From Escherichia phage HMD-P3, in the sequence record PQ462667.1: a DNA stretch of 64,000 nucleotides; one strand, written 5' to 3'. Below are positions 1,974 through 64,000 of this stretch, in pieces; the first letter of the stretch is position 1, and every line of letters starts with the position of its first letter. The notes under the pieces are model-generated. The model had not been told where the DNA came from. It worked only from the letters and a program-made list of their open reading frames with translations, and did not search any database. Position numbers and translations under genes: made by a program.

Positions 1974-2079
1974 TGATTTTCCTCTTTCTCACTATTTCAG
2001 GAATATTATAGCAAATCTGGTAGAGATTAGCAAGTAAAATTTCAAAGAAAAAGGAGACCCGAAGATCTCCTTGTTTTTA

Positions 2080-4410
2080 TTAAATAGTACAACCACCGGA
2101 TGCACAACCGGCTGCTTCTTCTCCAGCACCTCCACCATTTGCGGTATTGAAGTTAGCATAATACCAAGTTTTCCACCCATACTTAACAGCAGTCATGAAA
2201 TCACGAACTACTACTGGGCCAGGAATGATTTCATTCTCAAACTTGGTGTAGTCATAGTACATATTCGTACTGATAGACTGACTGAAGAATTTCTGCATAG
2301 TTGCTACCCATTTGATCCACTCGATACGATCTACATCATAAGCCAGTTTATAGCTCATTAACGTTTCCCAATCGGTTGCGCCTGGAGCAATTGCAATTAC
2401 TTTATTTACTGCACTACCTTTAATAGATACAATCTTACGGGGTGGTTCGATAGAGTTAGTAACACCTAACAGAACAGAAGAACTTTCCCCTGGCATCTGA
2501 GCAGTCAGAACAGAGTTACGCATACCATATTTCAGAATATCTGCACGCAGAGACTCCCAATCCATTTCTAGACCTACGGATACCAGTTCATCAACAGTTT
2601 TCTTGTACGTGTCGATTACCAGAATTCCTTTAGATGGTTTAGTACGATCAAACCACTCACATGCACCCTGTTCTTTAGCTAGGCGTACAGAGGCTTTATG
2701 CAGGAAGTAAGACAGTTTTTCAGCTTCACGGTGAATCCAGTTACGGGCTTCAATACCTTCATAAGCCAGACCTTCTGCCGCCATTGCACCTGCTGCGTTC
2801 ATCAGGCCAATACCAACATTACGACGTTTCTTAGCCGTATATTCCATAGTTGGGAACGGATAATCCTGAATTTCAATAATTGTATCAACGAATTTCAGGA
2901 GGATGTAGCAAGTTTTTTCCCACTCAGCCAAAGATTCCATGCGCCCAAGTACAACACCACCTAAGTTACACAGAGATACTTCACCAATATCCTCCGGCTT
3001 CATTTGATCAAGCTGCTCTTTTGTCTTGTACAGCTCTGTAATGTGATGGAACGGGCGTGTAGGCTGAGTAATTTCAACACAAAGGTTTGTCATACGGATC
3101 GGATCAAGGAAGTTACCGTGACGATTAGATTCCCCGATGTGATGAGCATACATACGTCCTGTTTCCATTCGGATACGTAGCCAAGTATCTAGGATTTCTT
3201 TTGCAGAGACTTTAGGAGCTGCTGGAACTGTTTTTCCTTCGTGGTCGATCTTTGTAAGAGATGCCACACGTTTCTCCGCTGCCACGTAGATTTCTTCAAA
3301 TTTAGCCTCGTCATCACTATAAAACGCTTCATGAACTTCTGGAGCATAGAAGTATGACATTAGCGTAATATCTTCGTTTTTCAGATAACGTTTTAACAAA
3401 AGATTGTTGAAGCTCAGAGAGTAATCCATCTTATCGATTTTATTCTCATCTGTAGCACGTTGTTGCTTAACCTGCATCAATTGAATGATTTCAGGGTCGA
3501 AGTATGGATAAGACACTGTAGCAGAACCACCACGAGTTTGCTGAGTATTGGCCTTTACTGAGCGGTCAATGTGTCGATAATATGGCAGTTTTCCGGAATG
3601 CGGGAATGCCCCATTTCGCACCGGATCAGCAATTGATCGGCTTTCAAGATGATACCCGATTCCCGCTCTGGCTGCGACCATTTTGAAGACGATGTGCTCG
3701 GCGGTGTCGATTGAATCCAACGTGTCAGTGGAATCCACGAGGCAGCAACTAGCAAATCCACGGTCACTAGAGCGCAGACCAACCAGTGGCGGCGTAGGAA
3801 CGTTAATTTTGTGGAGCGACATTGCGTTGTAGAGGTCGATTGCATCTAGAATTGTCCAGTTAGGTTGAGATAGCATCGCCATTGCCATACCCATGTAGGC
3901 AAACTGCGGAGTTTCATAAATTTCACCAGTGGCTATGTTACGGCGGGAATACTTATCAAAGAACTGCTTCAGCCCACCACTAGTAAAAAGACGGTCACGA
4001 TCATGGTCGATAACCTGATTCAGAGCTTCAAATTGCTCATCGGTAATCCATGCACTCATGTCTTCCCATGCACCTACGCTAACCATATGGTCATGGAAGA
4101 AACGCAGAGAAGGCGGTTCGAAGGAATCATAAAGGCGTTTACGCATTTGCGCAAGACGTAATTCCTTTGCTGGCACATCATATGCTGGATTATCTTTGAT
4201 AAGACTTTCAGCAGCTTTAATTAATGCATCCATCAGAGTGTCGGAATCTACAACCCCTTTAGGCAGAGTTTTTTGAGCAGCCATAGTAATGGCTGACCAA
4301 CTTACATCAACTGTTTTGCAACCATACTCTGCCCAACCATTGATTTTTTCAGGAGCAAAGTCTTCTACAGTACCGTCACGTTTAATTACTTTTTCAATGC
4401 GATGGCTCAT
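2080..4410 (-). CDS. nrdA: ribonucleotide reductase class Ia alpha subunit
   Basis: Large ORF with ATP-cone-like N-terminus (HRIEKVIKRDGTVEDF) and catalytic NLCVEI motif. Start placed at ATG 4410 (RBS AAGGAAAG upstream) rather than the longest ORF start 4515. Confidence 0.88.
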   Translation of the reverse strand: MSHRIEKVIKRDGTVEDFAPEKINGWAEYGCKTVDVSWSAITMAAQKTLPKGVVDSDTLMDALIKAAESLIKDNPAYDVPAKELRLAQMRKRLYDSFEPPSLRFFHDHMVSVGAWEDMSAWITDEQFEALNQVIDHDRDRLFTSGGLKQFFDKYSRRNIATGEIYETPQFAYMGMAMAMLSQPNWTILDAIDLYNAMSLHKINVPTPPLVGLRSSDRGFASCCLVDSTDTLDSIDTAEHIVFKMVAARAGIGYHLESRSIADPVRNGAFPHSGKLPYYRHIDRSVKANTQQTRGGSATVSYPYFDPEIIQLMQVKQQRATDENKIDKMDYSLSFNNLLLKRYLKNEDITLMSYFYAPEVHEAFYSDDEAKFEEIYVAAEKRVASLTKIDHEGKTVPAAPKVSAKEILDTWLRIRMETGRMYAHHIGESNRHGNFLDPIRMTNLCVEITQPTRPFHHITELYKTKEQLDQMKPEDIGEVSLCNLGGVVLGRMESLAEWEKTCYILLKFVDTIIEIQDYPFPTMEYTAKKRRNVGIGLMNAAGAMAAEGLAYEGIEARNWIHREAEKLSYFLHKASVRLAKEQGACEWFDRTKPSKGILVIDTYKKTVDELVSVGLEMDWESLRADILKYGMRNSVLTAQMPGESSSVLLGVTNSIEPPRKIVSIKGSAVNKVIAIAPGATDWETLMSYKLAYDVDRIEWIKWVATMQKFFSQSISTNMYYDYTKFENEIIPGPVVVRDFMTAVKYGWKTWYYANFNTANGGGAGEEAAGCASGGCTI

Positions 4411-4560
4411 TTGGCTTTCCTTTTTATAGTTATCAGGATTTAAGGAATATTCTACTTTATTATCGGTCATTAGGCAAATAAAATTTTCTGATAGAAAAGG
4501 CCCGAGTATTTTCATACCCAGGCCCTATATATTACCAGTCTAGCTTTTTAGCTTATTCAA

Positions 4561-4776
4561 TTACTTTAGCTCTCTAGCTACTTCTTTTAATAGAATATCT
4601 ATGGAGGTGCTCAGCTCGTTATAATTGAATGGTTTATTTGGATTTGAGGTTACAATTTTCCACGCTAGGGTTGTCTTAGGACTTTCTTCCCCTTCCTTAC
4701 GTGTAATCATATTAGCAGCACTCAGTGAAGTACGATGTATTTTAGTTTTACGGCTCAGATGAACGACGTTTCCCAT
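4561..4776 (-). CDS. small hypothetical protein (about 71 aa)
   Basis: ATG one nt after the phoH stop (TAAT-ATG) with GGAAGG RBS; no recognisable motif. Confidence 0.3.
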   Translation of the reverse strand: MGNVVHLSRKTKIHRTSLSAANMITRKEGEESPKTTLAWKIVTSNPNKPFNYNELSTSIDILLKEVARELK

Positions 4777-4777
4777 A

Positions 4778-5530
4778 TTACACCTTCCCCATGTCTTTAA
4801 AAATATCATAGAATGCTTTAGACTCAACAGAACGAACGTTATCAATCAATTCGATCATTGAGAATGGGGCATTTTCGTATTTCTCATAGACTTCCATAAG
4901 GAGCGCTAGACCTGAGTCACCTTTAATGTCTTTCTGAGCTATATCTCCGCAGATAATTAAACGGCAGTCTTGCCCTACACGAGTTAGGAGACAAATCATT
5001 GCCTCAACGGAAATATTCTGAGCTTCATCGACAATTACATAGGAGTTGTTGAAAGTTCTGCCACGAGCATGTTCGATAGCCAAAAATTTAATTTTCTGAC
5101 GTTCGACATATCCTTTATATGCATGATCGCCGATGGCCCATTTCATACCATCAGCTATTGGCTCCAACCAAGGCTCTAGCTTTTCCGCTAGATCACCAGG
5201 AAGCATACCAAGAGACTTACCTAGAGGTTCATTAGGACGTACGAGGATCACTTGCTCAATATCTGAGTGAATGTCTACGAGTTCCTGAGCTGCAAGAACG
5301 GACGGAATAAAGGTTTTACCAGTACCTGGCTCACCTATACCTACAGTCACTGTGTTGTTCTTGATCATATTGATATATGATTTTTGCTCGCGGTTTTTAC
5401 CTACTAGGGATTTAGCAACTGGGTTAGCGTAATCAGTAGAAAAATCAGCCTGAATTACGTTATTCTCATATTTGTTGCCACGCTTTCTTGAACCATTGCG
5501 GTTCTCTCTTTTTTGACGTGCTTTTCCCAT
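4778..5530 (-). CDS. phoH: PhoH-like ATPase
   Basis: Walker A GEPGTGKT and PhoH-like architecture; start placed at ATG 5530 preceded by AGGAG RBS (longest ORF begins at GTG 5539). Confidence 0.85.
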   Translation of the reverse strand: MGKARQKRENRNGSRKRGNKYENNVIQADFSTDYANPVAKSLVGKNREQKSYINMIKNNTVTVGIGEPGTGKTFIPSVLAAQELVDIHSDIEQVILVRPNEPLGKSLGMLPGDLAEKLEPWLEPIADGMKWAIGDHAYKGYVERQKIKFLAIEHARGRTFNNSYVIVDEAQNISVEAMICLLTRVGQDCRLIICGDIAQKDIKGDSGLALLMEVYEKYENAPFSMIELIDNVRSVESKAFYDIFKDMGKV

Positions 5531-5824
5531 AAATAACACTCCTATAGTGTACTTCGCTAACAGAGGATCAACAAAAAGATCTTGTTTATCAACTTACAAA
5601 TATATTATACCAATATATACAGTAAAAAGCAACTACAATTTTAAATAAGCCTATGATATTGCATTTAAATAAAAAATTTGCTTGCTTTTAACGTGAGATG
5701 TGTGATACTAGATAATCATTTTATATCGCGTGCACGAGTGCGTGATTATACAATTTTTAATAGAGATTGGCAAATAAAATTTTTTGACTCAGATCATGTT
5801 ACAGAACTTTATAGTAAAATATTG

Positions 5825-5853
5825 TTGACATCCGCCCTCGAATGAGTTATAAT
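5825..5853 (+). promoter_or_regulatory. sigma70-type promoter with perfect consensus (TTGACA, 17 bp, TATAAT) upstream of nrdD
   Basis: TTGACA at 5825..5830, 17-nt spacer, TATAAT at 5848..5853, AAGGAGAG RBS, ATG at 5883. Confidence 0.7.
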
Positions 5854-5882
5854 AGTAGTCTTAGTTAGAGAAGGAGAGTATA

Positions 5883-7757
5883 ATGAATCGCAATGAAGAA
5901 CTAAAGTATAAAGAAATGCAGGCGTTAATTAGAAACTGCAAAGAGATTATCGAAGGGTCAGCAGATGAAGAGCTGCTGTTTAATAATGCTAATAAACCCT
6001 CAGAACGTTTCCCTACACAAAGGGATATGCTTGCAGGTGAATTGAGTAAGTATCTGATTCTAGAAGAAATGCCAATTCAGATTCGAAATGCTCATATGAT
6101 TGGGGATATTCATTTCCATGATGCTGATTATGCTGCATTAGGCATGACTAACTGTTGTCTGGTAGCTCTGGAAGATATGCTGAAGAATGGTATGAAGGTT
6201 GGTAATGCTGAAATTAGCACTCCAAACTCTATCACTACTGCGGCGGCTATTACTGCTCAGATTATCACTCAGGTTAGCTCTCATCAGTATGGTGGTACTT
6301 CTGTAGATCGCCTTGATGAAGTATTAGCCCCTTATGTTCGTAAATCCTATGACAAAAATCATGCGTTTGCAAAACGTTGGACTAAGGATGAAGCCAAAGC
6401 ATCAGTAATGGCTACGGAGATGACTGAAAAGGAAGTCTATGATGCCTGTCAGGGTCTAGAGTATGAAATCAATACGATGTTCAACTCTAACGGTCAGAGT
6501 CCATTTATTACCTTTGGTTTTGGTCTAGGAACTTCTTGGGAAGCACGTCTAGTACAGAAAGCAATACTGAAAGTACGCATGGATGGTTTAGGTATCAATA
6601 AACGTACAGCTATCTTCCCGAAACTGGTATTTGTACTTCGTGATGGAGTAAATATGAAACCAGGAGATGTTAATTATGACATCAAGAAGTTAGCTATGAA
6701 ATGTACTGCTGAACGTATGTATCCAGACTATATCAGCTATGATAAGGTTGTGGAAGTTACTGGGGACTACAAAGTTTCTATGGGTTGTCGTTCATTCCTA
6801 GCTGCTACAGAAGATGGTGAAACTGCCGGTCGTAATAACTTAGGTGTTGTTTCTGTAAACTTGCCTAGAATTGCTATCGAAGCTGAAGGAAATATTGACC
6901 TATTCTTTGATTTGCTTGAGCTACGTGTAGATACAGCGTTAAAAGCGTTGGAGTGGAGAGTTGATCGCTTAAAATACATTCAAGCTAAAGCTGCACCCAT
7001 CCTGTATATGTCAGGAGCCTTTGGACTGCGCTTGGAGCCTGATGAATATGTATTCGATCATTTCTATAACCGTGCTTCTGTATCTCTAGGGTATATTGGT
7101 TGCCATGAAATGCTACAGTTTATGTTTGGCAAAGATGTAGACACAATGTCCGAGACCTGCATCAAGTTTGTTCAGCGTGTATTGCAGTACATGCGGGATA
7201 GAGTCGATCAGAAGAAGGAAGAAACTAAATTAGGTTATAGCCTGTATGCTACACCATCAGAATCCCTATGTGACCGTTTTTGTCGTCTAGACCGTGAATA
7301 TTTCCCAGAGCATGAAGATATTCTGTCCAAAGGATACTACACTAACTCGCACCACCTTGATGTAGAACGTAAAGTTGCTCCCAATGTGAAATTTGATTAT
7401 GAATCTAACTTTACTCCGATTGCTTCTGGTGGGTGCATTTCCTATGTAGAACTACCGGATATGAAACGATTCCCAGATGCACTGGAATGGGTTATTAATT
7501 ATGCTGCTAGTAAGGTTCATTACTTCGGTATTAATACCCCAGTGGATTCTTGTGGTAAATGTGGATTCTTAGGTGAAACAATAGCATCCGAAGATGGATT
7601 TAAGTGCCCTATCTGTGGTAATCATGACCCCGAAACTCTTGAAGTAACTCGTCGAGTTTGTGGGTATCTTGGAAATCCGGGTGCTCGTCCATTTAACCCC
7701 GGCAAACAGCACGAGGTGATGGGCAGAGTGAAGCATCAGGATATTCGAGCTAAGTAA
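5883..7757 (+). CDS. nrdD: anaerobic ribonucleoside-triphosphate reductase (class III)
   Basis: 624 aa; C-terminal glycyl-radical motif RVCGYLG and zinc ribbon CGKCG...CPICG. Confidence 0.9.
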   Translation: MNRNEELKYKEMQALIRNCKEIIEGSADEELLFNNANKPSERFPTQRDMLAGELSKYLILEEMPIQIRNAHMIGDIHFHDADYAALGMTNCCLVALEDMLKNGMKVGNAEISTPNSITTAAAITAQIITQVSSHQYGGTSVDRLDEVLAPYVRKSYDKNHAFAKRWTKDEAKASVMATEMTEKEVYDACQGLEYEINTMFNSNGQSPFITFGFGLGTSWEARLVQKAILKVRMDGLGINKRTAIFPKLVFVLRDGVNMKPGDVNYDIKKLAMKCTAERMYPDYISYDKVVEVTGDYKVSMGCRSFLAATEDGETAGRNNLGVVSVNLPRIAIEAEGNIDLFFDLLELRVDTALKALEWRVDRLKYIQAKAAPILYMSGAFGLRLEPDEYVFDHFYNRASVSLGYIGCHEMLQFMFGKDVDTMSETCIKFVQRVLQYMRDRVDQKKEETKLGYSLYATPSESLCDRFCRLDREYFPEHEDILSKGYYTNSHHLDVERKVAPNVKFDYESNFTPIASGGCISYVELPDMKRFPDALEWVINYAASKVHYFGINTPVDSCGKCGFLGETIASEDGFKCPICGNHDPETLEVTRRVCGYLGNPGARPFNPGKQHEVMGRVKHQDIRAK

Positions 7758-7764
7758 GCTAATC

Positions 7765-7800
7765 AGCCGGGTTGCTAGTCGACCTGGCTTTTATTTTATT
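7765..7800 (+). terminator. rho-independent terminator after nrdD
   Basis: Hairpin AGCCGGGT / ACCTGGCT (one G-U pair) followed by TTTTATTTTATT. Confidence 0.55.
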
Positions 7801-7828
7801 TGCTTTCAGCCAAAAATTTATATATAAT
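7800..7828 (+). promoter_or_regulatory. T5-type early promoter (TTGCTT, 17 bp, TATAAT)
   Basis: -35 TTGCTT 7800..7805, -10 TATAAT 7823..7828, then conserved AGATTTATAAATTTGAGAGGAG box and ATG 7857. Confidence 0.65.
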
Positions 7829-7856
7829 AGATTTATAAATTTGAGAGGAGAAAGAT

Positions 7857-8237
7857 ATGGAATTAAAGCCCTATATAGTTGAATCTACATGTGGTAGTTT
7901 CCATCTGGGTGTGGATAATATTGCTGAGGCTGTCTTTGCTGCTACAGGTGATTACTCGCATATAGAGGGTGTTGCATACCCTACCATTATTGGCGATTGG
8001 GTGGGAACAAATCTAGATGTATCGCCTTATAACCCATATTGCTTGTTTGATGAAGACAGAGATGAAGTAAAATGTAATCTTGAATTTGTGTATAATAGAG
8101 TGTTAAAAGTGTACCAACGTAGCCCCAATGGGTACGAAGATATTACTTGGAGTATTAAACAGTATCTTAAAGATATATACTCTAGTTTTTCTGACGAAGA
8201 CCTAGAAACAGTTGCAGTGGAGTTTAATAATGACTAA
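7857..8237 (+). CDS. hypothetical early protein (126 aa)
   Basis: ORF directly behind promoter and GAGGAG RBS; no recognisable motif. Confidence 0.6.
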   Translation: MELKPYIVESTCGSFHLGVDNIAEAVFAATGDYSHIEGVAYPTIIGDWVGTNLDVSPYNPYCLFDEDRDEVKCNLEFVYNRVLKVYQRSPNGYEDITWSIKQYLKDIYSSFSDEDLETVAVEFNND

Positions 8238-8436
8238 GAATGTGAAACACCTTAAATATCGCTTAATTTACAACGGACGTATGGAAACAGAAGATCTGGC
8301 CCAGTTAGCTATTAATTCTAATGAGGTTACAGTACGCGCGCTGGCAATTGAAAAGTTGCGTGCCTCTTATGAAAATCGTGTTATGGAACTAGAGGAGAAA
8401 CTTTATGGCATTCTCGAAGCCGATGCTACCAGATAA
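8230..8436 (+). CDS. hypothetical small early protein
   Basis: ATG 8230 overlaps the upstream stop; start uncertain (longest ORF from 8212). Confidence 0.4.
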   Translation: MTKNVKHLKYRLIYNGRMETEDLAQLAINSNEVTVRALAIEKLRASYENRVMELEEKLYGILEADATR

Positions 8437-8626
8437 GGGTTTAAACGCCGCTTTGGAAAACGCATTAATGCAGCGCTGGGAAACTGGCTATAAGGATGGT
8501 GTTGAATCCTGCGCTACTATGCTAGAAGTTATTGCTAATACCTTAATGGAGAAAGGCAATAAAGAATTAGCTGAGCTATTAGACAGTATTGGGCAAAACT
8601 TCAGAGAACAGGTGAAAAATGCGTAG
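8405..8626 (+). CDS. hypothetical small early protein (73 aa)
   Basis: GAGGAG RBS 6 nt upstream of ATG 8405. Confidence 0.5.
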   Translation: MAFSKPMLPDKGLNAALENALMQRWETGYKDGVESCATMLEVIANTLMEKGNKELAELLDSIGQNFREQVKNA

Positions 8627-9434
8627 ATTAATTATTATTAGTGGTGCAGGTTTGAGTGTTGAAAGTGGTGTACGAGCTTTTCGTACTGATACTGCTAGCG
8701 GTAAAGCATTGTGGGATGATTATGATCTAGAAGAAGTATGTAATATTCATGCCTTTCGCGGTAATTTTTATCATAAAACCCATATGTTTTACAACAAGCG
8801 TCGTGAAGAACTAAAAACTGTTGAACCCAATCTTGCGCATTTGCGTATTGGTGAATGGTATAAACAATATCCAGGTCAAATAGTAAACTTGACTACCAAT
8901 GTTGATGACCTTATTGAGCGTGCTGGCGTTCCACATAGTGACATTCTGCACATTCACGGATATTTAAAAGAGGTTGTTGTAGCTGATAACTACAATAGTA
9001 GCAATAAACGGATTATTGATGTAGGATACAATTCTATTGATCCAGATGATTATAAATGGGTTAAACCTAATGTAATCTTCTTTGGAGAGCATGCTCCAGC
9101 ATATGCGGAGATGTACAATGTTTTTGATGGTATTACCAGTCAAGATATGATCATTGTGGTTGGTTGCTCCAACCAAGTAATTAACTTCTACTGGGAATTA
9201 TTTCCTGTTCTTAATTTGACTGCTGCTAAGCTAATGGTTGTTAACTACTATGATAGTGCCCTAGCGGTGGAACCGGGCTATCAAGGTATGACTCGTAGTG
9301 AGATGTATCAACTGGAAGAACGTGGTATCCCTTACTGGAGTAAAGGTGCGGTAGATGCTTTCAGTGATCCTGATTTTATTGCTCGTGTAGAAGCTCATTT
9401 AGGGGGTAGACCTTATGTATCAGGAACTAAGTAA
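8619..9434 (+). CDS. Sir2-family protein lacking a zinc-ribbon module (NAD-dependent deacetylase / NADase-like)
   Basis: Sirtuin NAD-binding motif GAGLSVESGVRAFR near the N-terminus and HIHG catalytic-His motif; no CxxC...CxxC pairs anywhere in the protein. Confidence 0.75.
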   Translation: MRRLIIISGAGLSVESGVRAFRTDTASGKALWDDYDLEEVCNIHAFRGNFYHKTHMFYNKRREELKTVEPNLAHLRIGEWYKQYPGQIVNLTTNVDDLIERAGVPHSDILHIHGYLKEVVVADNYNSSNKRIIDVGYNSIDPDDYKWVKPNVIFFGEHAPAYAEMYNVFDGITSQDMIIVVGCSNQVINFYWELFPVLNLTAAKLMVVNYYDSALAVEPGYQGMTRSEMYQLEERGIPYWSKGAVDAFSDPDFIARVEAHLGGRPYVSGTK

Positions 9435-9927
9435 TACTCCAATTATTTTTCTAGACATTGATGGGGTGCTCAATTCGAGCATCTCCCACCATCATGCACC
9501 TGATAATGAAAAGATTTTCTTTGGAAGTGACTGGGTTTTCAAACCGCTTCTCAAGGCTTTTCAGGACTTTATTCGTCCTTCTCCAATAATGATTGTTGGA
9601 GTATCATCTTGGTTCTCTGTCAGAAATGAGATGGAGAACGTTCAGATTATGACCGGATTAGGTCTTATCGATCGCTTTCTTGGTACAACGGATTTTACTG
9701 GTGGTGGATTATCTAGGGGTAATTCTGTTCTTCGTTTCGTCGAAAAGCATAAGCTCAAACATTGGTGTGTACTTGATGATGCGGGTGCTATGATGTATCA
9801 GTATCCAACGGTTATAGTCAACGGTAGAACTGGGATAAATCTTCAAGATTTAAAAGCTGTTAGCTATATGCTAGAATTTAGCCCAGATCTTGAAATGTGT
9901 AAATCCTTACAACAATTTAAGGTGTAA
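9415..9927 (+). CDS. HAD-superfamily phosphatase-like protein
   Basis: HAD motif I FLDIDGVLN at the N-terminus; 170 aa; overlaps the Sir2-like gene by 20 nt. Confidence 0.6.
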   Translation: MYQELSNTPIIFLDIDGVLNSSISHHHAPDNEKIFFGSDWVFKPLLKAFQDFIRPSPIMIVGVSSWFSVRNEMENVQIMTGLGLIDRFLGTTDFTGGGLSRGNSVLRFVEKHKLKHWCVLDDAGAMMYQYPTVIVNGRTGINLQDLKAVSYMLEFSPDLEMCKSLQQFKV

Positions 9928-9929
9928 AT

Positions 9930-10358
9930 ATGTTCAATAATGTATTCTCTAAAGAAGCTAACCCAATTTTGGTTAACTTTTGGCGTACTCTCCCGGCTAG
10001 CCTGTATAATGAGGCTATTAACTCCTTGAAAATATGGTGTGAGAATAACGAAATCTCTTTTGCTTTTAAAGATGATGTTGATGAGGCCCCTTGTATTGGT
10101 TTAAGTGTGCAGGTAGAGGAGGGTCTTGAAGAGATTGTCGGCTGGAAAGAGTTAGATGAAATGGGCTTAGTTTTTGCGTTAAACTATAAGCTGTTTATGC
10201 CTGCTAAGCATCGCCTCGTTGTTAACTATAAAACTAGTGAATCTCCTGGTTTTCAGGTTAATGAACGTTATGGTTGGTCTTACTCACCGGAAGAAGTAAA
10301 TGAGGGGATTCAGAAACTTCGACGTTTCGGGTATATAATCCCAGGTTTAACTGCTTAA
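9930..10358 (+). CDS. hypothetical protein, paralog A of a tandem pair
   Basis: Shares PCIG ... ELD-x-MGL-x-ALN ... PGL motifs with the next ORF. Confidence 0.6.
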   Translation: MFNNVFSKEANPILVNFWRTLPASLYNEAINSLKIWCENNEISFAFKDDVDEAPCIGLSVQVEEGLEEIVGWKELDEMGLVFALNYKLFMPAKHRLVVNYKTSESPGFQVNERYGWSYSPEEVNEGIQKLRRFGYIIPGLTA

Positions 10359-28766: not shown

Positions 28767-30585
28767 GACACTAAAATTTAGTAACGTTATGTCTTACGGT
28801 AAGGACATCGTAATTCATTTCGATAAGAATCCAGTTACTCAACTAATTGGTGGCAATGGGCTAGGGAAATCCACTATTGCTACTGTTATTGAAGAACTAT
28901 TCTATAATAAGAACTCACGCGGTATTAAGAAGGATGCCCTGTTCTCTTGGTCTTCTCCGAAGAAAGAGTATGATATGCATGCTTACTTCTCAAAAGATGA
29001 AGATGAGTATGAATTGCATAAAGTAGTTAAATCAACTGCTAAAGTAACTCTTATTAAGAATGGAGAAGATATTAGTGGCCACACGGCAACTCAAACATAC
29101 AAGATGATTGAAGAGATTATGGGTGGTGACTTCCAAACATTCACCAAACTGATTTATCAATCAGTGGGTTCCAATCTAGACTTTCTAAAAGCAACAGACG
29201 CAACACGTAAGGCTTTTCTTGTTAACTTGTTCAATCAAGAACAGTACAAAGAAATGTCAGAAACTATTAAGGCTGACCGTAAAGAAATAGCAAATACCTT
29301 AAATAATTTGCAGGGCCAAATGGCTGTAATTACGAAAATCCTTAATGGAAAGAATAACCTGGGAACTTTGCAAGAACCAGTCGAAGTGCCTGAGTTTGAT
29401 GAAGAGCCATTAGCACAAGAACTTACTGAATCGAAAATTAAGGCGGCATTAGCCAAGTCTCAAGAGGCTAATATTACTAAATTGCGTAATTTGGACAAAG
29501 CTGTACAAGTTGCCGAACAATCTTTCGAGCCTTTCAAAAATTTACCCGCGCCCACTGACCAAAATGAAGAGATCTCGAGTGTTACGCGTGACCTAACGAT
29601 TGTGACCTCACGTGCGGGCGAAGTCAAGAAACGTTATCAGAAGTTCAAGCAAGAAGCTTCAAATACTAAATGTCCTACTTGTGGTACTCATCTGGATACA
29701 ACTGCTGCTCAAAAAGCAATGGATATGGCCAGAATAGAATATGACCCACTGTTCAAAGAGAAGCAATCTCTTGAAGCTAAGCTAGAACAGTTGAAGAAAG
29801 AACAACTTGAGTACGTTGCGTATACTAGAGCAAAGGATGCTTTGGATAAAGCAGTAGCAGCTAGAGATGAGTTCAAAAACTCAATGAGTGATGCTTCTTT
29901 TGAAGAACTCAATGTGCAAATCCTACAGGTGCAAATCCGACAATTAGAACAGGAAATCGCTGATGGCCGTTCTAAAGTTGCAATTGCCAAAGAGCATAAT
30001 GCAAATGTCGAATTAGCCAATGCAAAATATAAAGCGAAACTAGAACAGATTGAGAAAGCTGAGGCAGAAATGTCTGAGATTACTTCCAAACTGGATGGAG
30101 TATCAGAAGCTGTTGCTGATCTCGATATTCTGATCGCCGCATTGAAAAATCTGGTAGGGTATAAACTAGAACATAGTGTGAAAGTATTTGAAGAACTAAT
30201 TAATAAATACCTTTCTATTATGACTGGTGGTAAGTTCGCACTTGGATTTGAACTTGATGAAACGAAATTACAAGTAGTAATCTTCAATGATGGAAACCGT
30301 ACTAGTATGGAGAACTGCTCTACTGGTCAGCAAAGTCGAATTAATCTAGCAACTCTGTTAGCTATTCGGATGCTACTAACATCTATTAGTAAAGTTAATA
30401 TTAATCTTCTATTCCTTGATGAAGTAATTAGCTTTATTGATACGAAAGGACTTGACACTCTTGTTGAATTATTAAATGAGGAAGAAAGTCTAAATTCTAT
30501 CATTGTTTCTCATGGGCATACGCATCCATTGGCCCATAAGATTACTGTCAAAAAAGATGCAGAAGGATTTTCCTACTTAGAATAA
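28747..30585 (+). CDS. SbcC/Rad50-like ATPase (T5 D13-like)
   Basis: Walker A GGNGLGKST, long coiled-coil with CPTCG zinc hook, Walker B/D-loop LLFLDEVISFID. Start set at ATG 28747 (MSKITIKTLKFSN), overlapping sbcD by 20 nt. Confidence 0.8.
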   Translation: MSKITIKTLKFSNVMSYGKDIVIHFDKNPVTQLIGGNGLGKSTIATVIEELFYNKNSRGIKKDALFSWSSPKKEYDMHAYFSKDEDEYELHKVVKSTAKVTLIKNGEDISGHTATQTYKMIEEIMGGDFQTFTKLIYQSVGSNLDFLKATDATRKAFLVNLFNQEQYKEMSETIKADRKEIANTLNNLQGQMAVITKILNGKNNLGTLQEPVEVPEFDEEPLAQELTESKIKAALAKSQEANITKLRNLDKAVQVAEQSFEPFKNLPAPTDQNEEISSVTRDLTIVTSRAGEVKKRYQKFKQEASNTKCPTCGTHLDTTAAQKAMDMARIEYDPLFKEKQSLEAKLEQLKKEQLEYVAYTRAKDALDKAVAARDEFKNSMSDASFEELNVQILQVQIRQLEQEIADGRSKVAIAKEHNANVELANAKYKAKLEQIEKAEAEMSEITSKLDGVSEAVADLDILIAALKNLVGYKLEHSVKVFEELINKYLSIMTGGKFALGFELDETKLQVVIFNDGNRTSMENCSTGQQSRINLATLLAIRMLLTSISKVNINLLFLDEVISFIDTKGLDTLVELLNEEESLNSIIVSHGHTHPLAHKITVKKDAEGFSYLE

Positions 30586-34962: not shown

Positions 34963-36168
34963 TTACCGTAAGCCATTAATCTGATCATTATTTAAGGCCC
35001 TATACCATACTCGGAAATTCTTAATATGATATACAAATTTAGAAACGGTATAAGGTGGTGGTGTACCTAACCTAGACGGAGTACCTGTCAAACTCACGGG
35101 AGTACTAGTAGATTTAGCAGTTTTACCATTAAAATAGTTGCTTATTTCATCTCCAACTATTTTTTGGACATAGGTCATAGGAGGTAAACTTTCTATATCT
35201 GGAATAGATAAGGTTGGCCCACCACTAGATCTATATGTTATTATAGTGGCACTATCACTGCTATTACAGCGGCAGATAATGTCATTCCTAGAGCCTCTTA
35301 CTTGCATAACTTCTACATAACTAGTATAAGGCCGTACTTTACAATTAAATTCAAAAGATACTGTACGCTCAAAGTAGTCCGCTAGGGTTCTATAGCCGGC
35401 ATTATCTGGTATACACCACCATTCATCTGCTGTTCTAGTAGTAGTGGTATCAGTGCTATTACGGATGTAAGAAGTTGGAGCTATGCCTTCCTCAACCTGT
35501 ATACCCCAGATGTAGAAACCAGAAACACCATCCCCCGGATAGACGGTAACACCAGTAGTTTTAGCCATCTGGAGTCTAAATATAGTATCTTTACTTGTAG
35601 TGGCAGCAAAAGAAAGCCAAATTCTATATATACCTCCAGTTAGTCTCTCATATCCCCCTCTAATATTACTAGCAGAACCACTTGTAGTAACAGTTTCATT
35701 TTTAATATCAAAAAACATGCCCGCTGTTGTACCGGAAGCTACACGTAGGTATACTAAACGATTTGCAGTATCATCTTTAACATAAGCAGAATAGCAATAA
35801 AAAGTATCAGCAGTCAAAGATATAAATTTATCTTTGGAATAATGCTCGCTGTCATTGGTATTCTCGGTAAACTTAGTCATTAACATTTCGCCAGTCGGAC
35901 AAGCCGAAGCATTAGGAGTTGTAATAACTGTACTACTTCCAGTAATTTCTTCTGAATTAGTATATAAATTAGTGCACTGGGACTCCATTAATAAACCTTG
36001 CTTTTCAAATCTAGGTTCATTAATATCTGCAAAACACATTTTACCACTTTTATCTATATAACTGGCGGTAGTTGAGCGAGTAAAATTTGCAGATTTTGTT
36101 GGTAATTCCAGAGTTACATCATTAATTGTTGCTAAATCGTAAGGGGCCATACCAGATAATAATCTCAT
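34963..36168 (-). CDS. lateral tail fibre protein, C-terminal (distal, probably receptor-binding) segment; ORF artificially separated from 36390..37058
   Basis: The reading frame is actually open upstream to 36384 without a start codon and continues the Ala-rich heptad repeats of the upstream ORF. Confidence 0.6.
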   Translation of the reverse strand: MRLLSGMAPYDLATINDVTLELPTKSANFTRSTTASYIDKSGKMCFADINEPRFEKQGLLMESQCTNLYTNSEEITGSSTVITTPNASACPTGEMLMTKFTENTNDSEHYSKDKFISLTADTFYCYSAYVKDDTANRLVYLRVASGTTAGMFFDIKNETVTTSGSASNIRGGYERLTGGIYRIWLSFAATTSKDTIFRLQMAKTTGVTVYPGDGVSGFYIWGIQVEEGIAPTSYIRNSTDTTTTRTADEWWCIPDNAGYRTLADYFERTVSFEFNCKVRPYTSYVEVMQVRGSRNDIICRCNSSDSATIITYRSSGGPTLSIPDIESLPPMTYVQKIVGDEISNYFNGKTAKSTSTPVSLTGTPSRLGTPPPYTVSKFVYHIKNFRVWYRALNNDQINGLR

Positions 36169-36389
36169 ATCATCAGTTAAAGGTACCCAAACATCCGGAT
36201 AGGGGACAGGTTCATATATAATAATACTAGCAGCAGAGGCAGCAGCAGCGGCTTCAGAAGCTTTAGCATTAATTTCAGAAGCTTTAGCATTAGTCTCTGA
36301 AGCTTTAGCATTAGTCTCAGAAGTTTTTGCTGCTGTTTGTGAAGCTGCTGCTGCATTTTTACTTGCTAATGCATCAGCGGCACTTCAAT

Positions 36390-37058
36390 TTAATGATACG
36401 GCGACCACCGAGATCTACACCTGAGGAAACACTCTTTCCCTACACGACGCTCTTCCGATCTAGCTGCCGCTAATTCGGAAGCTTTAGCATTAGTTTCAGA
36501 AGTCTTAGCATTAGTCTCAGAAGTTTTTGCTGCTGTTTGTGAAGCTGCTGCTGCATTTTTACTTGCTAATGCATTAGTCTCACTAGTTTTAGCATTAGTC
36601 TCGGAGGCTTTAGCTTTTGTTTCACTAGTCTTAGCATTAGTTTCTGATACTTTTGCATTAGTCTCTGAGGTTTTAGCCTTAGTTTCACTAGCTTTCGCAT
36701 TAGTCTCAGATACTTTAGCTGCTGCGGCTGATTCTGCAGATCTATCCGCTGATGCAGCAGATTGAGTAGCAGATGTAGCGGACTGAGTAGCAGAAGTTTC
36801 AGAAGCTCCAGCAGAAATAGCTGCTTCCTGTTCAGAGTTCTTAGCGTTAAGCTCCGAAGTTTTAGCCGCTATCTCAGAATCTTTTGCAGCTGCAGCAGAC
36901 TTAGCTGCTGCTTCAATAGAAGATACTAACTCACTTGCAGTAATAGAGCTAATAGAATTACCTAGAGTTACTGTATATCTAGGAAACTTACTAGCAGTAG
37001 CTTTAGTATCATCAATATTTAATATTTGTTGTACAATAATTTTAGTAGTTACTGCCAT
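36390..37058 (-). CDS. lateral tail fibre protein, N-terminal segment; C-terminal 20-odd residues are translated adapter
   Basis: Ala-rich repeats (SETNAKTSETKAK...); ORF ends ...SEERRVGKECFLRCRSRWSPYH, which is the reverse-complement translation of the adapter at 36392..36461. Confidence 0.6.
   Translation of the reverse strand: MAVTTKIIVQQILNIDDTKATASKFPRYTVTLGNSISSITASELVSSIEAAAKSAAAAKDSEIAAKTSELNAKNSEQEAAISAGASETSATQSATSATQSAASADRSAESAAAAKVSETNAKASETKAKTSETNAKVSETNAKTSETKAKASETNAKTSETNALASKNAAAASQTAAKTSETNAKTSETNAKASELAAARSEERRVGKECFLRCRSRWSPYH
36392..36461. other. embedded Illumina universal (P5) adapter sequence - assembly/library artefact
   Basis: AATGATACGGCGACCACCGAGATCTACAC + 8-nt index CTGAGGAA + ACACTCTTTCCCTACACGACGCTCTTCCGATCT, read directly from the sequence. 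Confidence 0.97.
36470..36760. repeat. tandem 21-bp coding repeats (heptad repeats of the fibre shaft)
   Basis: Successive 21-nt units of the form GCTTTAGCATTAGTCTCAGAA encoding (S/T)ETNAK(A/T) repeats on the minus strand. Confidence 0.7.
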
Positions 37059-39556: not shown

Positions 39557-42390
39557 TCCACAGACTGTTCTCCATCATCTCCTTCTGCTCTAATACGAAA
39601 ATATAGTTTTCTATTGATCCCTAGAGCACCACTGTTATGAAGAGCAAAATCTGCCTTATTATACATTAATAAATAGTCATAAGTATACTGATTTTCAATA
39701 CGTACACTTCTTAGCATTCTATTCTGAGAATCATAGATCTCCAGAGTATAGAATATACTTTCTATTATATCTTCTTCTGGTATCCTATCCCAAGCTAGTC
39801 TTACATCTGGGCCTACAAACTCAGTTACATCCCCAGAAGCCATATTAGTTACCCTAAAATTAGATACTACACTTAGGTTTTTAGCAGAGTTAAGTTCTAT
39901 AGATAATGTTACTGGAGAACTTCTTCTACCGTTTATATCCACGGCCCTTATTTCAAATATTGCTAAACCTGCAGGCTCTCCAATTATCTCTTGGACCATG
40001 CGTTCATTGGGATTTGTTTCTAGTTGCTGCACGATATAGGGTTCAGCATGACCTGAATGCACGATAGAGTAATAAACTACGTTATTAGTTAAACTTGGAA
40101 GCCAAGATAGCTCACCATTTTTTCCTATAGAGCCAACTAAACCACCGGGTGTAGGGGTATATTTAAAATCTCTAGGAGGAAGAACATTGTTACTAATATC
40201 TGGTATATCATTACCACTATTATCTACTTGATCAGAGTTGATAAATACATCTTCCCCATACTCTTGTAGAGTAACATTTATCTTTCCTTCCCTAGAGTTT
40301 TCGACTTCATCTACTAAAAAGTATTTCTTATCCCATCCGTAACGGTCGTATGTAAATGCAATGGCATCGTTAGGTTCAATACCAATGAATTGATATGGTA
40401 AAGAAAAAGAAAGGGTTCTAGAATACCTAGATTTCTTAAGTTCTCTGTCTGCAAAACTTCTAGCAGTATAGTAGTTAGTTATATTTGCAAAAGATAATTG
40501 TAATTTTTTGTCTAAATTTTTATCTTGCTCTTTATATCTAGAGTTATAAAAGGTAATAGAGTTAGTTTTCCAGCTAAGAGCTGGGTCTACGATGGATGCT
40601 TGAACTGAGTTGAACTTATTTCTACCAGTAGTATCTGATAGCTCTAAATCACCATAAGTATCCAGAAAATTAATCTCTAATGGAGTATTAGAATACTTTT
40701 CCACAGTAATTCTATACTGACCAGATAAGTTGTTAATAGCTCCACCATAGGACTCTAGCAAACCTTGCACATTTTTGAATACTGATTCAGATGTATCTAG
40801 AATAGTATTCATTTGTACTATTTGTCTATTTTCTGCTAATGGATCAGTCCACCCAATGTACCTCCAGTACGGCTGCCAGGATACTTGGTAAGATTCATCT
40901 ATAATATCTAGGATAGCAGCTTCCTGTATCAATTGTTGAAGAGGGAATTGATCAATAGTAATATTAGCACCGTATCTATCTGAAGTTAAGTAATCAAGTG
41001 TTTGCCAGATACCATTTAAACTAGTGCTATTAGCAGTTACTCTACCATCAGAGTGGTAGATTTTTACCTTCTTACCCTGAATCTCAGCACTAACTTCTGG
41101 AATCTCAGTTCTATTTTCATTAATAGTAAAGCGCACTACCGCATAAGCAGTATCTAATAGTTTATATCTAGCATCCCAGTACTCAGGCCCATTACCGTTC
41201 ATACTTTGAAGATAGAACCCACGCTCCTTCGCTATATTTACTAATACTTCAGAAGCCGTTTGATCGGCTTTTCCATGATAAGTCCAAATCCTTATATCAC
41301 CATTACCATCGTTATATTTATATTCCTGGCCATGCACAGAAGGACTACTAGAAGATATTCCTGATGCTATTCTTTGCATGGTGTCTCCTGCTACTTTTTT
41401 AACACCGAAGCAGGTTCTAGCAGAGCTATCATTAGAGTCCATACAAATCATAGGATTATCACCAAAGGAAAAGTCAAGAAAACCGTCTATCTCTCCTTCA
41501 GCAAAAGCATATACTACATAAACTATATTAGGATTGTGTAATTCCGTATCCGCAAAAATAGGTATTCCCGGTATTTTCTGTACACCATAAACTACTGGTA
41601 TATACTTAGCAGCAAGGTTAAAATCTATATCTACTTCTTTAGTAACAGTCTCATAATACTTTTTAAGACTATAACTTCTAGATAGTCCAAATAGCTTTTT
41701 CTTAGATTTTAGCTTGTATCTTTCTTCCTGTACCTGATACTTTGCTAGAATAGAGATACTTTTATTGGCATGAAAGAAACCGTAATCTTCTTGGTACTCA
41801 AGTCTTTTAGCCCCGTTAGATGGAAGTAATTGCCCTGCTACAACTTCAAGCCCTCTATGAGAAGCATCATCAGTAAATCTACCATTAACCCTATCAAAAT
41901 CATAGAATTGGTTAGAACAATTCCAAGTAATTGTGGAGGTTCCAACTCCCGAAGTACTAATATTATCCTTAATACCTCCACCAGTAATTCTACCTCTAAA
42001 GTATAATAAAGGCCCGTTTGTGTCTGGGTCTACAGGTAAAATAGAACCATCCTCTGTAATAATTGCTTGGTGGATTGATACTGTTCTATCTAAAAAGGAC
42101 ACACCATTCTGCACTAATTTCAGTACTTCATCCTGCGCTGTACCCGTAATAGTAAAAGATAGACTGCCAATAGATAAATCTCTGTTTTGTTTATGTGCGC
42201 TAATAGATTTAACTTTACCAGCCTGATACAAAATACCATTATATAGTACATCTCTAAAATAATCAGTTAAATAAATAAAAGCAGTACTAGTACCAGTAGA
42301 GCTAGGCAACTCTAGAGAAATTAGACTAGCAGTTTTTATTCTGCTATTATTTTTTAAGTAGTTTCTAGCACTATCTAATATTTTTTTCAT
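39541..42390 (-). CDS. baseplate hub protein (T5 pb3-like)
   Basis: 949 aa, matching the recalled size of T5 pb3; follows the Dit-like gene. Confidence 0.65.
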   Translation of the reverse strand: MKKILDSARNYLKNNSRIKTASLISLELPSSTGTSTAFIYLTDYFRDVLYNGILYQAGKVKSISAHKQNRDLSIGSLSFTITGTAQDEVLKLVQNGVSFLDRTVSIHQAIITEDGSILPVDPDTNGPLLYFRGRITGGGIKDNISTSGVGTSTITWNCSNQFYDFDRVNGRFTDDASHRGLEVVAGQLLPSNGAKRLEYQEDYGFFHANKSISILAKYQVQEERYKLKSKKKLFGLSRSYSLKKYYETVTKEVDIDFNLAAKYIPVVYGVQKIPGIPIFADTELHNPNIVYVVYAFAEGEIDGFLDFSFGDNPMICMDSNDSSARTCFGVKKVAGDTMQRIASGISSSSPSVHGQEYKYNDGNGDIRIWTYHGKADQTASEVLVNIAKERGFYLQSMNGNGPEYWDARYKLLDTAYAVVRFTINENRTEIPEVSAEIQGKKVKIYHSDGRVTANSTSLNGIWQTLDYLTSDRYGANITIDQFPLQQLIQEAAILDIIDESYQVSWQPYWRYIGWTDPLAENRQIVQMNTILDTSESVFKNVQGLLESYGGAINNLSGQYRITVEKYSNTPLEINFLDTYGDLELSDTTGRNKFNSVQASIVDPALSWKTNSITFYNSRYKEQDKNLDKKLQLSFANITNYYTARSFADRELKKSRYSRTLSFSLPYQFIGIEPNDAIAFTYDRYGWDKKYFLVDEVENSREGKINVTLQEYGEDVFINSDQVDNSGNDIPDISNNVLPPRDFKYTPTPGGLVGSIGKNGELSWLPSLTNNVVYYSIVHSGHAEPYIVQQLETNPNERMVQEIIGEPAGLAIFEIRAVDINGRRSSPVTLSIELNSAKNLSVVSNFRVTNMASGDVTEFVGPDVRLAWDRIPEEDIIESIFYTLEIYDSQNRMLRSVRIENQYTYDYLLMYNKADFALHNSGALGINRKLYFRIRAEGDDGEQSVEWASI

Positions 42391-60745: not shown

Positions 60746-60896
60746 TTTGACTTTTGCCAAATTTCATAAGATTACACATGGAGGTGTGTCCAGTGGCCTC
60801 CCAGATGAGAATGAGTCTCGTTACCGCCCGGTACTTAGCAGACTAATAGTCACGGCATGTTATCATTGCACACCGTGACTATTTCAATTTTAATTA

Positions 60897-61631
60897 TTAC
60901 GCAACTTTTAATTTCTCAATATATTGTTGCGGGCTGCAACTATATTCTGCGCGTTCTTCTTCGGTCATACTTTCCCAACATAATTTTAAGCGATCGGCTA
61001 GGAACTGATAATCATTATCATCCTCGAGAGATTCATCAATAAAGGTTCCGCCTATCAATGCCGCGCCGATCGATAGAATATCATTAACGGCTTGCGCATC
61101 TAGCGTTTTAAATCCATATGATGCCGCTGCTGATAATACACCTTTATGATCATCAATCATCGTAAAATCAGCATTCGGATATAACTGTTTAAATAATTCA
61201 AAATAATAACTTTTATATACTGCGTCCTTGCTGTGGTATATTTCGCTAACCTTATCAGCCTCAAAATATTTATGCAGTGTATCACGGGAAAATACACGGA
61301 TATTACTATCCCCACGCCCGCGCAATCCTTGTTTACGCAAATAATAATAATCCGACTTGCTCATCAGTCGAGCGGTACAAATAATGTTTAAAGTATTTGC
61401 GTCATTCATGCATTGGCGCATATATTCAACTAATGGTAATAAAGTATCTTGCATAATTAAATCATGTTTGCAAGCCTCATTTTTATACTTATTTAAATCT
61501 AAATTCCCATCGCTATCAAAGCAAGGTGCTACACGATGGAATGAGTTAACGATAGTGCCATCCAGATCCCAGATCATGACGCGGGAAATATGCGGGAAAT
61601 TACGGGAAATATTCGTTTTAACTTGATTCAT
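60897..61631 (-). CDS. HAD-type 5-prime-deoxyribonucleotidase-like phosphatase (T5 dmp-like pre-early gene)
   Basis: HAD motif I MIWDLDGTIVNSF; start set at ATG 61631 (GGAGA RBS), giving 244 aa; longest ORF from 61673. Confidence 0.65.
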   Translation of the reverse strand: MNQVKTNISRNFPHISRVMIWDLDGTIVNSFHRVAPCFDSDGNLDLNKYKNEACKHDLIMQDTLLPLVEYMRQCMNDANTLNIICTARLMSKSDYYYLRKQGLRGRGDSNIRVFSRDTLHKYFEADKVSEIYHSKDAVYKSYYFELFKQLYPNADFTMIDDHKGVLSAAASYGFKTLDAQAVNDILSIGAALIGGTFIDESLEDDNDYQFLADRLKLCWESMTEEERAEYSCSPQQYIEKLKVA

Positions 61632-61711
61632 TTTGTTACGTTCTCCATTAAAGGGATGTAGTTTATCCAGCATTGCCCGCTATTTATAAGCGGGCAATAA
61701 TAAATCAACTA

Positions 61712-62104
61712 TTAAAGACCATAAGCCAACGCATCAGCGATAAAACTAATATCTTCGCCGGATACGTGGGAACGAATGCCCGCGCATGTAAATACCTTCG
61801 CGCTCATTAGTTGATCATCAAGACAAGCCGGACAAGGCGCGACAACTGCAAACGCTAGGCCGGATTTTACGGCGTCGATGATAATCGTTTCCTGCTTCAC
61901 CGTGTCAACATAAACGCCTGCGGCCTTGATGTGACTACTAGCGCGGCCTTGCGTATATGCGAAGGTAGTAACCTGCAAAGCCTCATTGAAATCTAATAGA
62001 TCATCAATAACGTGCCCCGCCTCTACGTGGTAACGTTCGCCGTTAGAATAAACCAGAACGATTGAGGATTGAGCGCGATCGAATGGGATATTTTGCTTTT
62101 TCAT
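61712..62104 (-). CDS. hypothetical pre-early protein (130 aa)
   Basis: GGAG RBS 9 nt upstream; contains HVE ... PCPAC residues. Confidence 0.55.
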   Translation of the reverse strand: MKKQNIPFDRAQSSIVLVYSNGERYHVEAGHVIDDLLDFNEALQVTTFAYTQGRASSHIKAAGVYVDTVKQETIIIDAVKSGLAFAVVAPCPACLDDQLMSAKVFTCAGIRSHVSGEDISFIADALAYGL

Positions 62105-62168
62105 GTTTATAACTCCAATTAATTTAATAAGGGTATAAGCTGGGAATATTCCCAGCTTATAAATTTAA

Positions 62169-63833
62169 TTATGCGAAAAATTTGCCGTTTTTAAAGTCAA
62201 TCAAAGTGCGCTGGCCGTTCGCATAGGTAATTAAATGCGTTTGCGTCCAGCTTGACGCGCCAACGTTATAGCCCATATCTAGGGAACCAGCGACGCCCGC
62301 CGTATATACGCCGCCGTATATGCTGGCGGTGTGGGTGTGCCCCGTGTTTAATTTGCCTAGTTTCTTAAATTGTTTTGGATTGCCACGGCTGCCGTTAATG
62401 CCGTTGTGACCGTGTACACCGCACTCAATGCCTGCAATCTTGAAAGATTGATCAGTCGTTAGGAAAATCGCGTTAAACTCACAACCTGCGACGTCACGCA
62501 GCGCATAATCTAGCACGTTAAAAGTATCATCCTGCTTTGCAATAGCTGCATAGATAGCGGCATTCAGGCGGTGATACAGTTCCGCGTTTGCTGGATCATC
62601 TTTAATGTTAGCATTACGATCATCAAGCCAACGAGATAGCGCCAAATCGTGGTTTGATTCCACGATGATTGTTTGACTAAAATCACGTTCCATTGATTCC
62701 AGCACGCGCCCGGTGTCGATCAAATCATCCATAACCTTATCGCGTCCGGCTGCATACTGTTTCGCTAGAAATACACCGGAAGCGCGGTTATGGTGATTGC
62801 GTGATGTAAAATCGTGAACGTCATGGATAAACTGATATTTTGGCTTGAGAATATCAAGCAAACTGTTTTCGCCAGCCCATGACGCTGCGGCGCACTCCTC
62901 ATCTAATTTTTCAGCGTGCACGTCGCCATACTGCAAGCCTAAAACATGCCCCGACGTTTCAAAACATCCGGCGGGGGTCGCGCAAACATTCAGATCATAA
63001 AACATGCCGCTTTCGTCCATCGTTTCAAGCTGGCGCACAAAAAACTCACCGTCTTCGTCGAACTCAACAATCAGCGCACCGTAATTATGCAGCGCCTCCG
63101 CTTTCTGTCCTGCTTTTTGCTGAATGTAGTTTTTGAGCGTTGCCGTTCCGGTTGAGTACATGCGGCGCACCACTTCACCTTTTAAAGCTGGGACACTTTC
63201 GGCGGTGATTTTAGCGTGACCAATTGCCAGACCTTCCAGATTAAGCGCCGTTGCAGTTTCTGCAAATCCAGACAGTGGATAGTCTGCGGTCGGTAGCACG
63301 TTAATCTCTGCCATGAAAGCAAAACGGCGGTTATTTAAAAACACGTTTTTGCTGCAAATATATTTATCAAATGCGGAATCATATTTTACACCGTCTGCGC
63401 CTTCACCATTTTGAAAGCCGTTTTTGTTATAAATATACTTAGAAACGAGCAAATCAGCGCCGCAAAATTTAGCATATTGTTCAAGTGAGGCTAAAAAGTT
63501 TTTATGAGGGAAAGTATTGTTCTGAATCGATGTAATAATAAAGCGTTTTCCCTGTTTTACTTCCCACTGTTCCACCGTGCTAGAAATAATTCCAGCCGCT
63601 TCGGGGCGCTCGTCGTTTTTGATAGCTTTTACAGCTTTCGCCGCTTTTGGTTTTGCTGGTTTATTTTCTTCTAACCAATCACAAATAGCGGTCGAGTGTT
63701 TCGTTGTATCGTAGACCGCTTTTGATATATAGTCGCAGACTTCCAGCTTAGTAGCGCGCAGACGTTTACCGTAGAAATTAAAATCAGCGGCCATCTTCAG
63801 GATAACGGTTTGTTTTTCTGCGGAAAAAATCAT
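62169..63833 (-). CDS. calcineurin-like metallophosphoesterase (T5 A1-like pre-early protein)
   Basis: 554 aa; phosphoesterase-like motifs GDVHA, ESNHD, GVHGHNG, GHTHT; size and position match T5 A1 as I recall it. Confidence 0.6.
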   Translation of the reverse strand: MIFSAEKQTVILKMAADFNFYGKRLRATKLEVCDYISKAVYDTTKHSTAICDWLEENKPAKPKAAKAVKAIKNDERPEAAGIISSTVEQWEVKQGKRFIITSIQNNTFPHKNFLASLEQYAKFCGADLLVSKYIYNKNGFQNGEGADGVKYDSAFDKYICSKNVFLNNRRFAFMAEINVLPTADYPLSGFAETATALNLEGLAIGHAKITAESVPALKGEVVRRMYSTGTATLKNYIQQKAGQKAEALHNYGALIVEFDEDGEFFVRQLETMDESGMFYDLNVCATPAGCFETSGHVLGLQYGDVHAEKLDEECAAASWAGENSLLDILKPKYQFIHDVHDFTSRNHHNRASGVFLAKQYAAGRDKVMDDLIDTGRVLESMERDFSQTIIVESNHDLALSRWLDDRNANIKDDPANAELYHRLNAAIYAAIAKQDDTFNVLDYALRDVAGCEFNAIFLTTDQSFKIAGIECGVHGHNGINGSRGNPKQFKKLGKLNTGHTHTASIYGGVYTAGVAGSLDMGYNVGASSWTQTHLITYANGQRTLIDFKNGKFFA

Positions 63834-63936
63834 AATAATAAAACACCATTAAAGAGATTAAAAAACGTTTGTTATTGGCAATATAGCAAAATATAACGCC
63901 TCGAATAAAAGGAGTAATAATTTGCAACATTAAGAA

Positions 63937-63980
63937 CGGAAGAGCACACGTCTGAACTCCAGTCACAGGACAGACTCTCG
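63937..63980. other. Illumina index-adapter remnant at the right edge - artefact
   Basis: CGGAAGAGCACACGTCTGAACTCCAGTCAC followed by an 8-nt index-like AGGACAGA and CTCTCG; ORF 63784..63966 (MTGVQTCALPF...) is its translation. Confidence 0.9.
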
Positions 63981-64000
63981 GAAACCCTCGAATTCGATAA

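Follow-up and report, generated by a model that had tools for sequence, protein, structure and literature searches.

Illumina adapter sequence at the right edge and within the tail-fibre gene of a T5-like phage sequence

The locus

The stretch of DNA considered here, 64,000 nt in length and referred to throughout as the window, comes from a phage of the T5 type (Demerecviridae, Tequintavirus). Over its full length the window aligns colinearly with Tequintavirus genomes, at 94-98% identity, and its gene order runs from the replication genes and DNA polymerase through the tail fibres, the tail, the receptor-binding protein pb5 and llp to the start of the terminal repeat. Towards the right edge, the segment 61500..63932 is matched by 488 phage records, the best of which (Salmonella phage GSP044) reaches 92%. 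Adapter sequence of the Illumina type is encountered at two places, one at the right edge, next to the pre-early gene A1, and one within the gene for the L-shaped tail fibre. The features that surround these two places are compiled in Table 1.

Table 1. Features around the two adapters and in the terminal-repeat region, in window coordinates
Feature	Position	Strand	Remarks
C-terminal part of the tail fibre	34963..36386	-	Frame open from 36384 to the stop at 34963
Tandem array of 21-nt (7-aa) units in the tail-fibre gene, split by the adapter	36253..36719	.	One consensus common to both sides
Phage sequence	up to 36386		
Five unassignable nt (AATTT) between phage and adapter	36387..36391	+	
N-terminal tail-fibre fragment, 222-aa ORF	36390..37058	-	Residues 1-196 are 93% identical to IME178 1-196
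P5 flow-cell sequence	36392..36420	+	AATGATACGGCGACCACCGAGATCTACAC, exact
i5 index 8-mer	36421..36428	+	CTGAGGAA
Read-1 primer site	36429..36461	+	ACACTCTTTCCCTACACGACGCTCTTCCGATCT, exact; 0 mismatches, 0/100 shuffles
Phage sequence again	from 36462		
Initial 3,146 nt of the terminal repeat, with dmp, a hypothetical protein and A1 (first-step-transfer region)	60787..63932	+	T5/Spc35 alignment
Pre-early gene A1, 554 aa, genuine	62169..63833	-	
Spurious 60-codon ORF, GTG start (MTGVQTCALPF...)	63784..63966	-	Adapter-encoded start; frame without conservation
Final 99 nt that are genuinely phage, upstream of A1, up to the point where relatives have the T5.005-like stop codon	63834..63932	-	Alignment
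Right junction			Phage ...TTTGCAACATTA followed on the adapter side by AGAACGGAAGAGCACACG...
Index-adapter stem, as in Read-1 read-through	63933..63966	+	AGATCGGAAGAGCACACGTCTGAACTCCAGTCAC, 33/34; exact 30-mer; relatives without homology from 63934
i7-index-like 8-mer	63967..63974	+	AGGACAGA, directly after the adapter stem; P7 register fits an 8-nt index only
Probable error-laden P7 flow-cell sequence	63975..63998	+	Expected ATCTCGTATGCCGTCTTCTGCTTG, observed CTCTCGGAAACCCTCGAATTCGAT; 12/24 identical in register
Two trailing bases AA	63999..64000	+	Probably past the expected end of the library molecule
Layout of the window end			...AATAATTTGCAACATTA / AGAACGGAAGAGCACACGTCTGAACTCCAGTCAC / AGGACAGA / CTCTCGGAAACCCTCGAATTCGAT / AA

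Position of the right junction in the terminal repeat

Terminal repeats have been annotated at 1..9573 in Spc35 (HQ406778) and at 1..10219 in T5 (AY543070). The right junction of the window corresponds to position 3168 of Spc35 and approximately to position 3473 of T5, inside the left terminal repeat. Base 1 of the left repeats of both phages aligns to window position 60787/60788, and the window sequence upstream of this point aligns to the place in Spc35 where the unique region meets the right repeat. The window is unbroken across 60787/60788, where the unique region (pb5, llp and small ORFs) passes into the repeat (dmp and A1); therefore the two copies of the repeat have been collapsed in assembly, and the adapter lies 3,146 nt inside the repeat. 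Judged by this alignment, the junction at 63932 does not represent a genome terminus, and the true left terminus would be located within the window, at 60787/60788. The initial annotation had regarded the end of the sequence as a library fragment end and not a verified genome terminus, a view that is borne out by the location of 63932 well inside the left repeat and of the termini at 60787/60788.

The adapter at the right edge

The stem of the Illumina TruSeq index adapter (AGATCGGAAGAGCACACGTCTGAACTCCAGTCAC) is matched on the plus strand at 33 of its 34 positions, the lone mismatch being a T to A change at 63936, whereas none of 100 dinucleotide-preserving shuffles contained such a match. Positions 63937..63966 form an exact 30-mer of the adapter (CGGAAGAGCACACGTCTGAACTCCAGTCAC). 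That index-adapter sequence begins at 63937 and is succeeded by an index-like 8-mer and by sequence unlike that of a phage had been proposed from the letters of the window; the exact 30-mer, the adjoining 8-mer and a tail that lacks a phage match agree with this description. The existence of a phage/adapter junction was likewise correctly recognized in the initial annotation, but its position, given there as about 63936, requires revision. Base-by-base alignment with Spc35 and GSP044 follows phage sequence up to 63932/63933 and finds none from 63934 onward, and among the matches listed between related phage records and the window, homology ends at 63931..63933. The alignments thus place the boundary between phage and adapter at 63932/63933, about 4 nt to the left of 63936/63937. 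Because the alignment ends there, the AGAA at 63933..63936 represents the first four adapter bases (AGAT) with a single error and is not phage sequence. All related records that cover the right junction part from the window at this point, as is expected of a non-biological sequence.

Beyond the junction the relatives possess a 65-aa gene (Spc35 3168..3365; T5.005, described as 'contains two transmembrane domains'), which is followed by A2. At the junction the T5.005-like sequence of these relatives reads approximately ...CATTNAACTAATAGGCATCAGG..., and the start of the adapter coincides exactly with the position at which the T5.005-like gene should terminate. Local repeats able to explain a break at 63932 were not found, in contrast to the internal junction described below. 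A scan for Nextera, MGI and PhiX sequence returned just isolated 11-12-mers of the kind expected by chance.

The identity of the bases that follow the index was assessed by their agreement with the P7 flow-cell sequence. When the index is taken to be 8 nt long, the length also of the i5 index within the tail-fibre gene, 12 of the next 24 nt are identical to P7 (binomial p=0.007), and each of the other index lengths, 4-7 and 9-12 nt, yields 2-8 matches. By our own count on both sequences the matches are front-loaded, with 10 in the first 15 positions and 2 in the last 9, which is the pattern expected from decaying read quality. A search for the expected P7 sequence (ATCTCGTATGCCGTCTTCTGCTTG) at up to 3 mismatches gave no match. 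A gapped alignment between the tail and P7, in which end gaps go unpenalized, is uninformative, as its score is equalled by 14,117 of 20,000 random 26-mers; the usable statistic is the ungapped count of matches in register. Among 50,697 phage records the tail finds chance matches of 17-18 nt only, a search of 5,426 complete E. coli genomes leaves it unmatched, and a 22-mer taken from it is absent from the genomes of 185,579 prokaryotic species, each represented by one genome. A chimeric join of 63967..64000 to other DNA was considered as a candidate and rejected on these negative results from phage, E. coli and prokaryotic genomes. The tail after the index is probably the degraded P7 end of a read, an assignment that for the last 26 nt depends on the match at 12 of 24 positions. 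P7 would then end at 63998, two bases short of the window edge, which suggests that the right edge of the window was set by a real contig end. The junction pattern had no counterpart among viral contigs, a 23-mer of pure phage sequence beside it was absent from viral, genome and metagenome collections, and no record exists of the exact A1 protein.

The adapter also contributes to a false reading frame. In the ORF at 63784..63966, 33 bases (63934..63966) are adapter and provide the GTG start together with codons 1-11 (MTGVQTCALPF); the remainder crosses the 99-nt region upstream of A1 and enters the 5′ end of A1 in another frame. The equivalent frame of Spc35 stays open for 19 codons before a stop, and indels that shift the frame are present among relatives in the region of this ORF. 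Since its start and first 11 codons come from the adapter and the frame is not conserved in Spc35, the ORF is spurious, and the earlier listing of exactly this ORF as an artefact is upheld.

The adapter within the tail-fibre gene

The universal-adapter sequence has one exact match in the window, and the 70 nt at 36392..36461 are a complete dual-index TruSeq universal (P5-side) adapter, with flow-cell sequence, i5 index and Read-1 primer site. This adapter was not mentioned in the initial annotation, and it is more damaging than the one at the right edge. Both of its flanks belong to the gene for the L-shaped tail fibre and are contiguous in relatives. In phage IME178 the place of the adapter is taken by about 170 nt of extra repeat sequence, and in the window about 165-170 nt of the array are replaced. 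The 21-nt tandem array that the adapter interrupts was probably the cause of the assembly break in this gene. Two 105-nt stretches that are 94% identical to each other, 36270..36374 and 36471..36574, flank the adapter; they are genuine repeat modules and not an artefactual duplication, because IME178 carries both.

As a consequence of the insertion, what is a single 729-aa gene in IME178 is represented in the window by two ORFs, between which about 55 residues are lacking. The 222-aa ORF that holds the N-terminal fragment finishes in an adapter-encoded tail (...RSEERRVGKECFLRCRSRWSPYH) and a stop codon.

Origin of the adapter sequences

The observed adapter identities and boundaries, the loss of homology, the distance of the right junction from the repeat boundary and the changes to ORFs can be accommodated in a read-level history in which the window edge is taken to be a contig end. 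The best explanation overall, and one that is very probably correct, is a short-read assembly of a T5-like phage from reads with untrimmed adapters, with read-through of a fragment end at 63932. The segment 36462..63932 (27,471 nt) is bounded by P5 on its left and by the index adapter on its right, which is the orientation of a single library molecule. Here the window would be the right-hand 64 kb of a Tequintavirus short-read assembly built from incompletely trimmed reads. One or a few library fragments would end at 63932, so that Read 1 would pass from the insert into the adapter, the i7 index and P7 with falling quality, and the assembler may have retained this low-coverage adapter tip as the end of a path. 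Collapse of the repeat would leave an effectively circular graph without a natural end, in which adapter tips may have set the point where the linear contig stops. At the left end of the 27.5-kb stretch, read-through of Read 2 would have added the complete P5/i5 adapter at the contig break in the tandem array. This adapter-tipped end may then have been linked to the adjacent contig, whether by the assembler, by a scaffolder or by hand, with the loss of about 165 nt of the gene.

Several other readings have to be weighed against a terminal read-through. The right-hand adapter could itself be internal, such that the 26 nt after the index would start another joined piece of DNA (from the host, or from elsewhere in this phage) and the contig would continue past 64000. 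An adapter-mediated join does already exist elsewhere in the window (36392), the tail is without a P7 match at 3 or fewer mismatches, and the length of the window is a round number, so that its edge could lie elsewhere than at a contig end. This reading is nevertheless very unlikely, as the tail has neither a phage match beyond chance length nor any match in the E. coli genomes, its 22-mer is missing from the species genomes, and the register with P7 is better than expected by chance, front-loaded, and brings the end of P7 to 63998. That the adapter-like sequence might be genuine phage sequence with a chance likeness to an adapter has nothing in its favour beyond its presence in the sequence, and the probability of such a likeness is practically nil in view of the 33/34 match against 0/100 shuffles, the presence in this window of a second adapter, 70 nt long and exact, that belongs to the opposite side of one library design, and the divergence of all related records covering the region at the junction.

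A biological alternative would make 63932 a preferred physical end in virion DNA, either a minor T5-type nick turned into a break or an alternative packaging end, at which adapter-ligated ends pile up. T5-like phages do possess site-specific nicks, among them minor ones of low frequency (PMC3517423), and the junction falls exactly where, in relatives, the adjacent gene has its stop codon. However, the consensus of the T5 major nicks, 5′-R/GCGCRGG-3′ (PMC3517423), is not found at the junction, the nearest GCGC being 176 nt from 63932, and the T5 record holds no annotated nick or terminus feature in 1-5000. Moreover, the error in the adapter and the degraded tail suggest one or a few reads and not a pile-up, and the annotated termini map to 60787/60788. 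A preferred physical end of this kind is exceedingly unlikely. The same slim chance is given to the proposition that 63932, at the T5.005-like stop codon and 3.1 kb into the first-step-transfer region, is a recurrent end of virion DNA, for example a minor nick or a fragile site outside R/GCGCRGG; if this were true, the adapter would mark a real structural feature of packaged DNA and not a random fragment end. Near either adapter junction the consensus is absent, the only sites in the window being at 8508, 29545 and 42132, and the GCGC nearest to the internal junction is more than 2.7 kb away. These three matches (8508..8515, 29545..29552 and 42132..42139) are all on the minus strand, and their number is not above chance, with 1.88 expected. 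The site at 29545 presumably lies close to the estimated map position of the 64.8% major nick of T5, as judged from the nick map of that phage and the alignment coordinates.

Consequences for annotation

Read-through into untrimmed adapters, the preferred reading, makes the sequences described here an ordinary Illumina adapter artefact with no biological feature or novelty, and their value is one of quality control, for clean-up and annotation only. Before the sequence is annotated or compared, the terminal 68 bases of the window, as well as the 75 bases at 36387..36461, need to be cut out or turned into gap symbols, and no gene should be assigned to the ORF at 63784..63966. The 'tail fibre' ORFs of 222 and 401 aa are to be treated as the halves of one L-shaped tail-fibre gene of about 730 aa, which bears on the inference of host range. 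The end of the sequence should not be read as a genome terminus, as the window holds only the first 3.1 kb of the repeat. If left uncorrected, adapter-encoded peptides (MTGVQTCALPF... and ...RSEERRVGKEC...) enter protein databases, where they create false similarities between unrelated records.

Comparison with known systems

Contamination of assemblies by Illumina adapters is well documented, as noted in a 2026 survey of ONT adapter contamination (PMC13182109). The window resembles the TruSeq-type read-through contamination that is screened for by NCBI VecScreen and FCS-adaptor in having the canonical stem with an index-like word at a sequence edge, an adapter with P5, i5 and Read-1 primer site all present, loss of homology at the junction and adapter-encoded peptides in mechanically called ORFs. 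It differs from the usual case in that the P7 part is heavily degraded (12/24) and in that one adapter is internal and bridges a gap in a gene with tandem repeats. Among the 50,697 deposited phage records searched, 27 contain pieces of the P5 adapter, mostly no more than about 150 nt from a record end and in a few cases internally. Examples of such remnants are OR360270.1 (41598..41671), LC768493.1 (140768..140840), MZ092003.1 (49352..49383), PP129558.1 (101933..101964) and MK170160.1 (22631..22663). Internal P5 pieces in other phage records may mark misjoins like the one in the window.

With respect to the terminal repeat, the window is comparable to short-read assemblies of Tequintavirus phages with collapsed repeats in that it passes from the end of the pb5/llp region to the start of dmp-A1, and the same collapse is seen in many permuted records of relatives of about 107-111 kb. 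Unlike those permuted records, its linear sequence breaks off at an adapter tip, 3,146 nt into the repeat, and not at an arbitrary or curated position. The closest counterpart of the internal adapter is provided by Escherichia phage fp01 (MH745368.2), in which a run of Ns occupies the same place of the 21-nt array and the gene is annotated as two CDSs. In contrast to the Ns of fp01, the gap in the window is filled with adapter, so that it passes as continuous sequence and gives an ORF with an adapter-encoded C-terminus. The repeat array of the tail-fibre gene appears to be a recurrent failure point of short-read assembly in T5-like phages.
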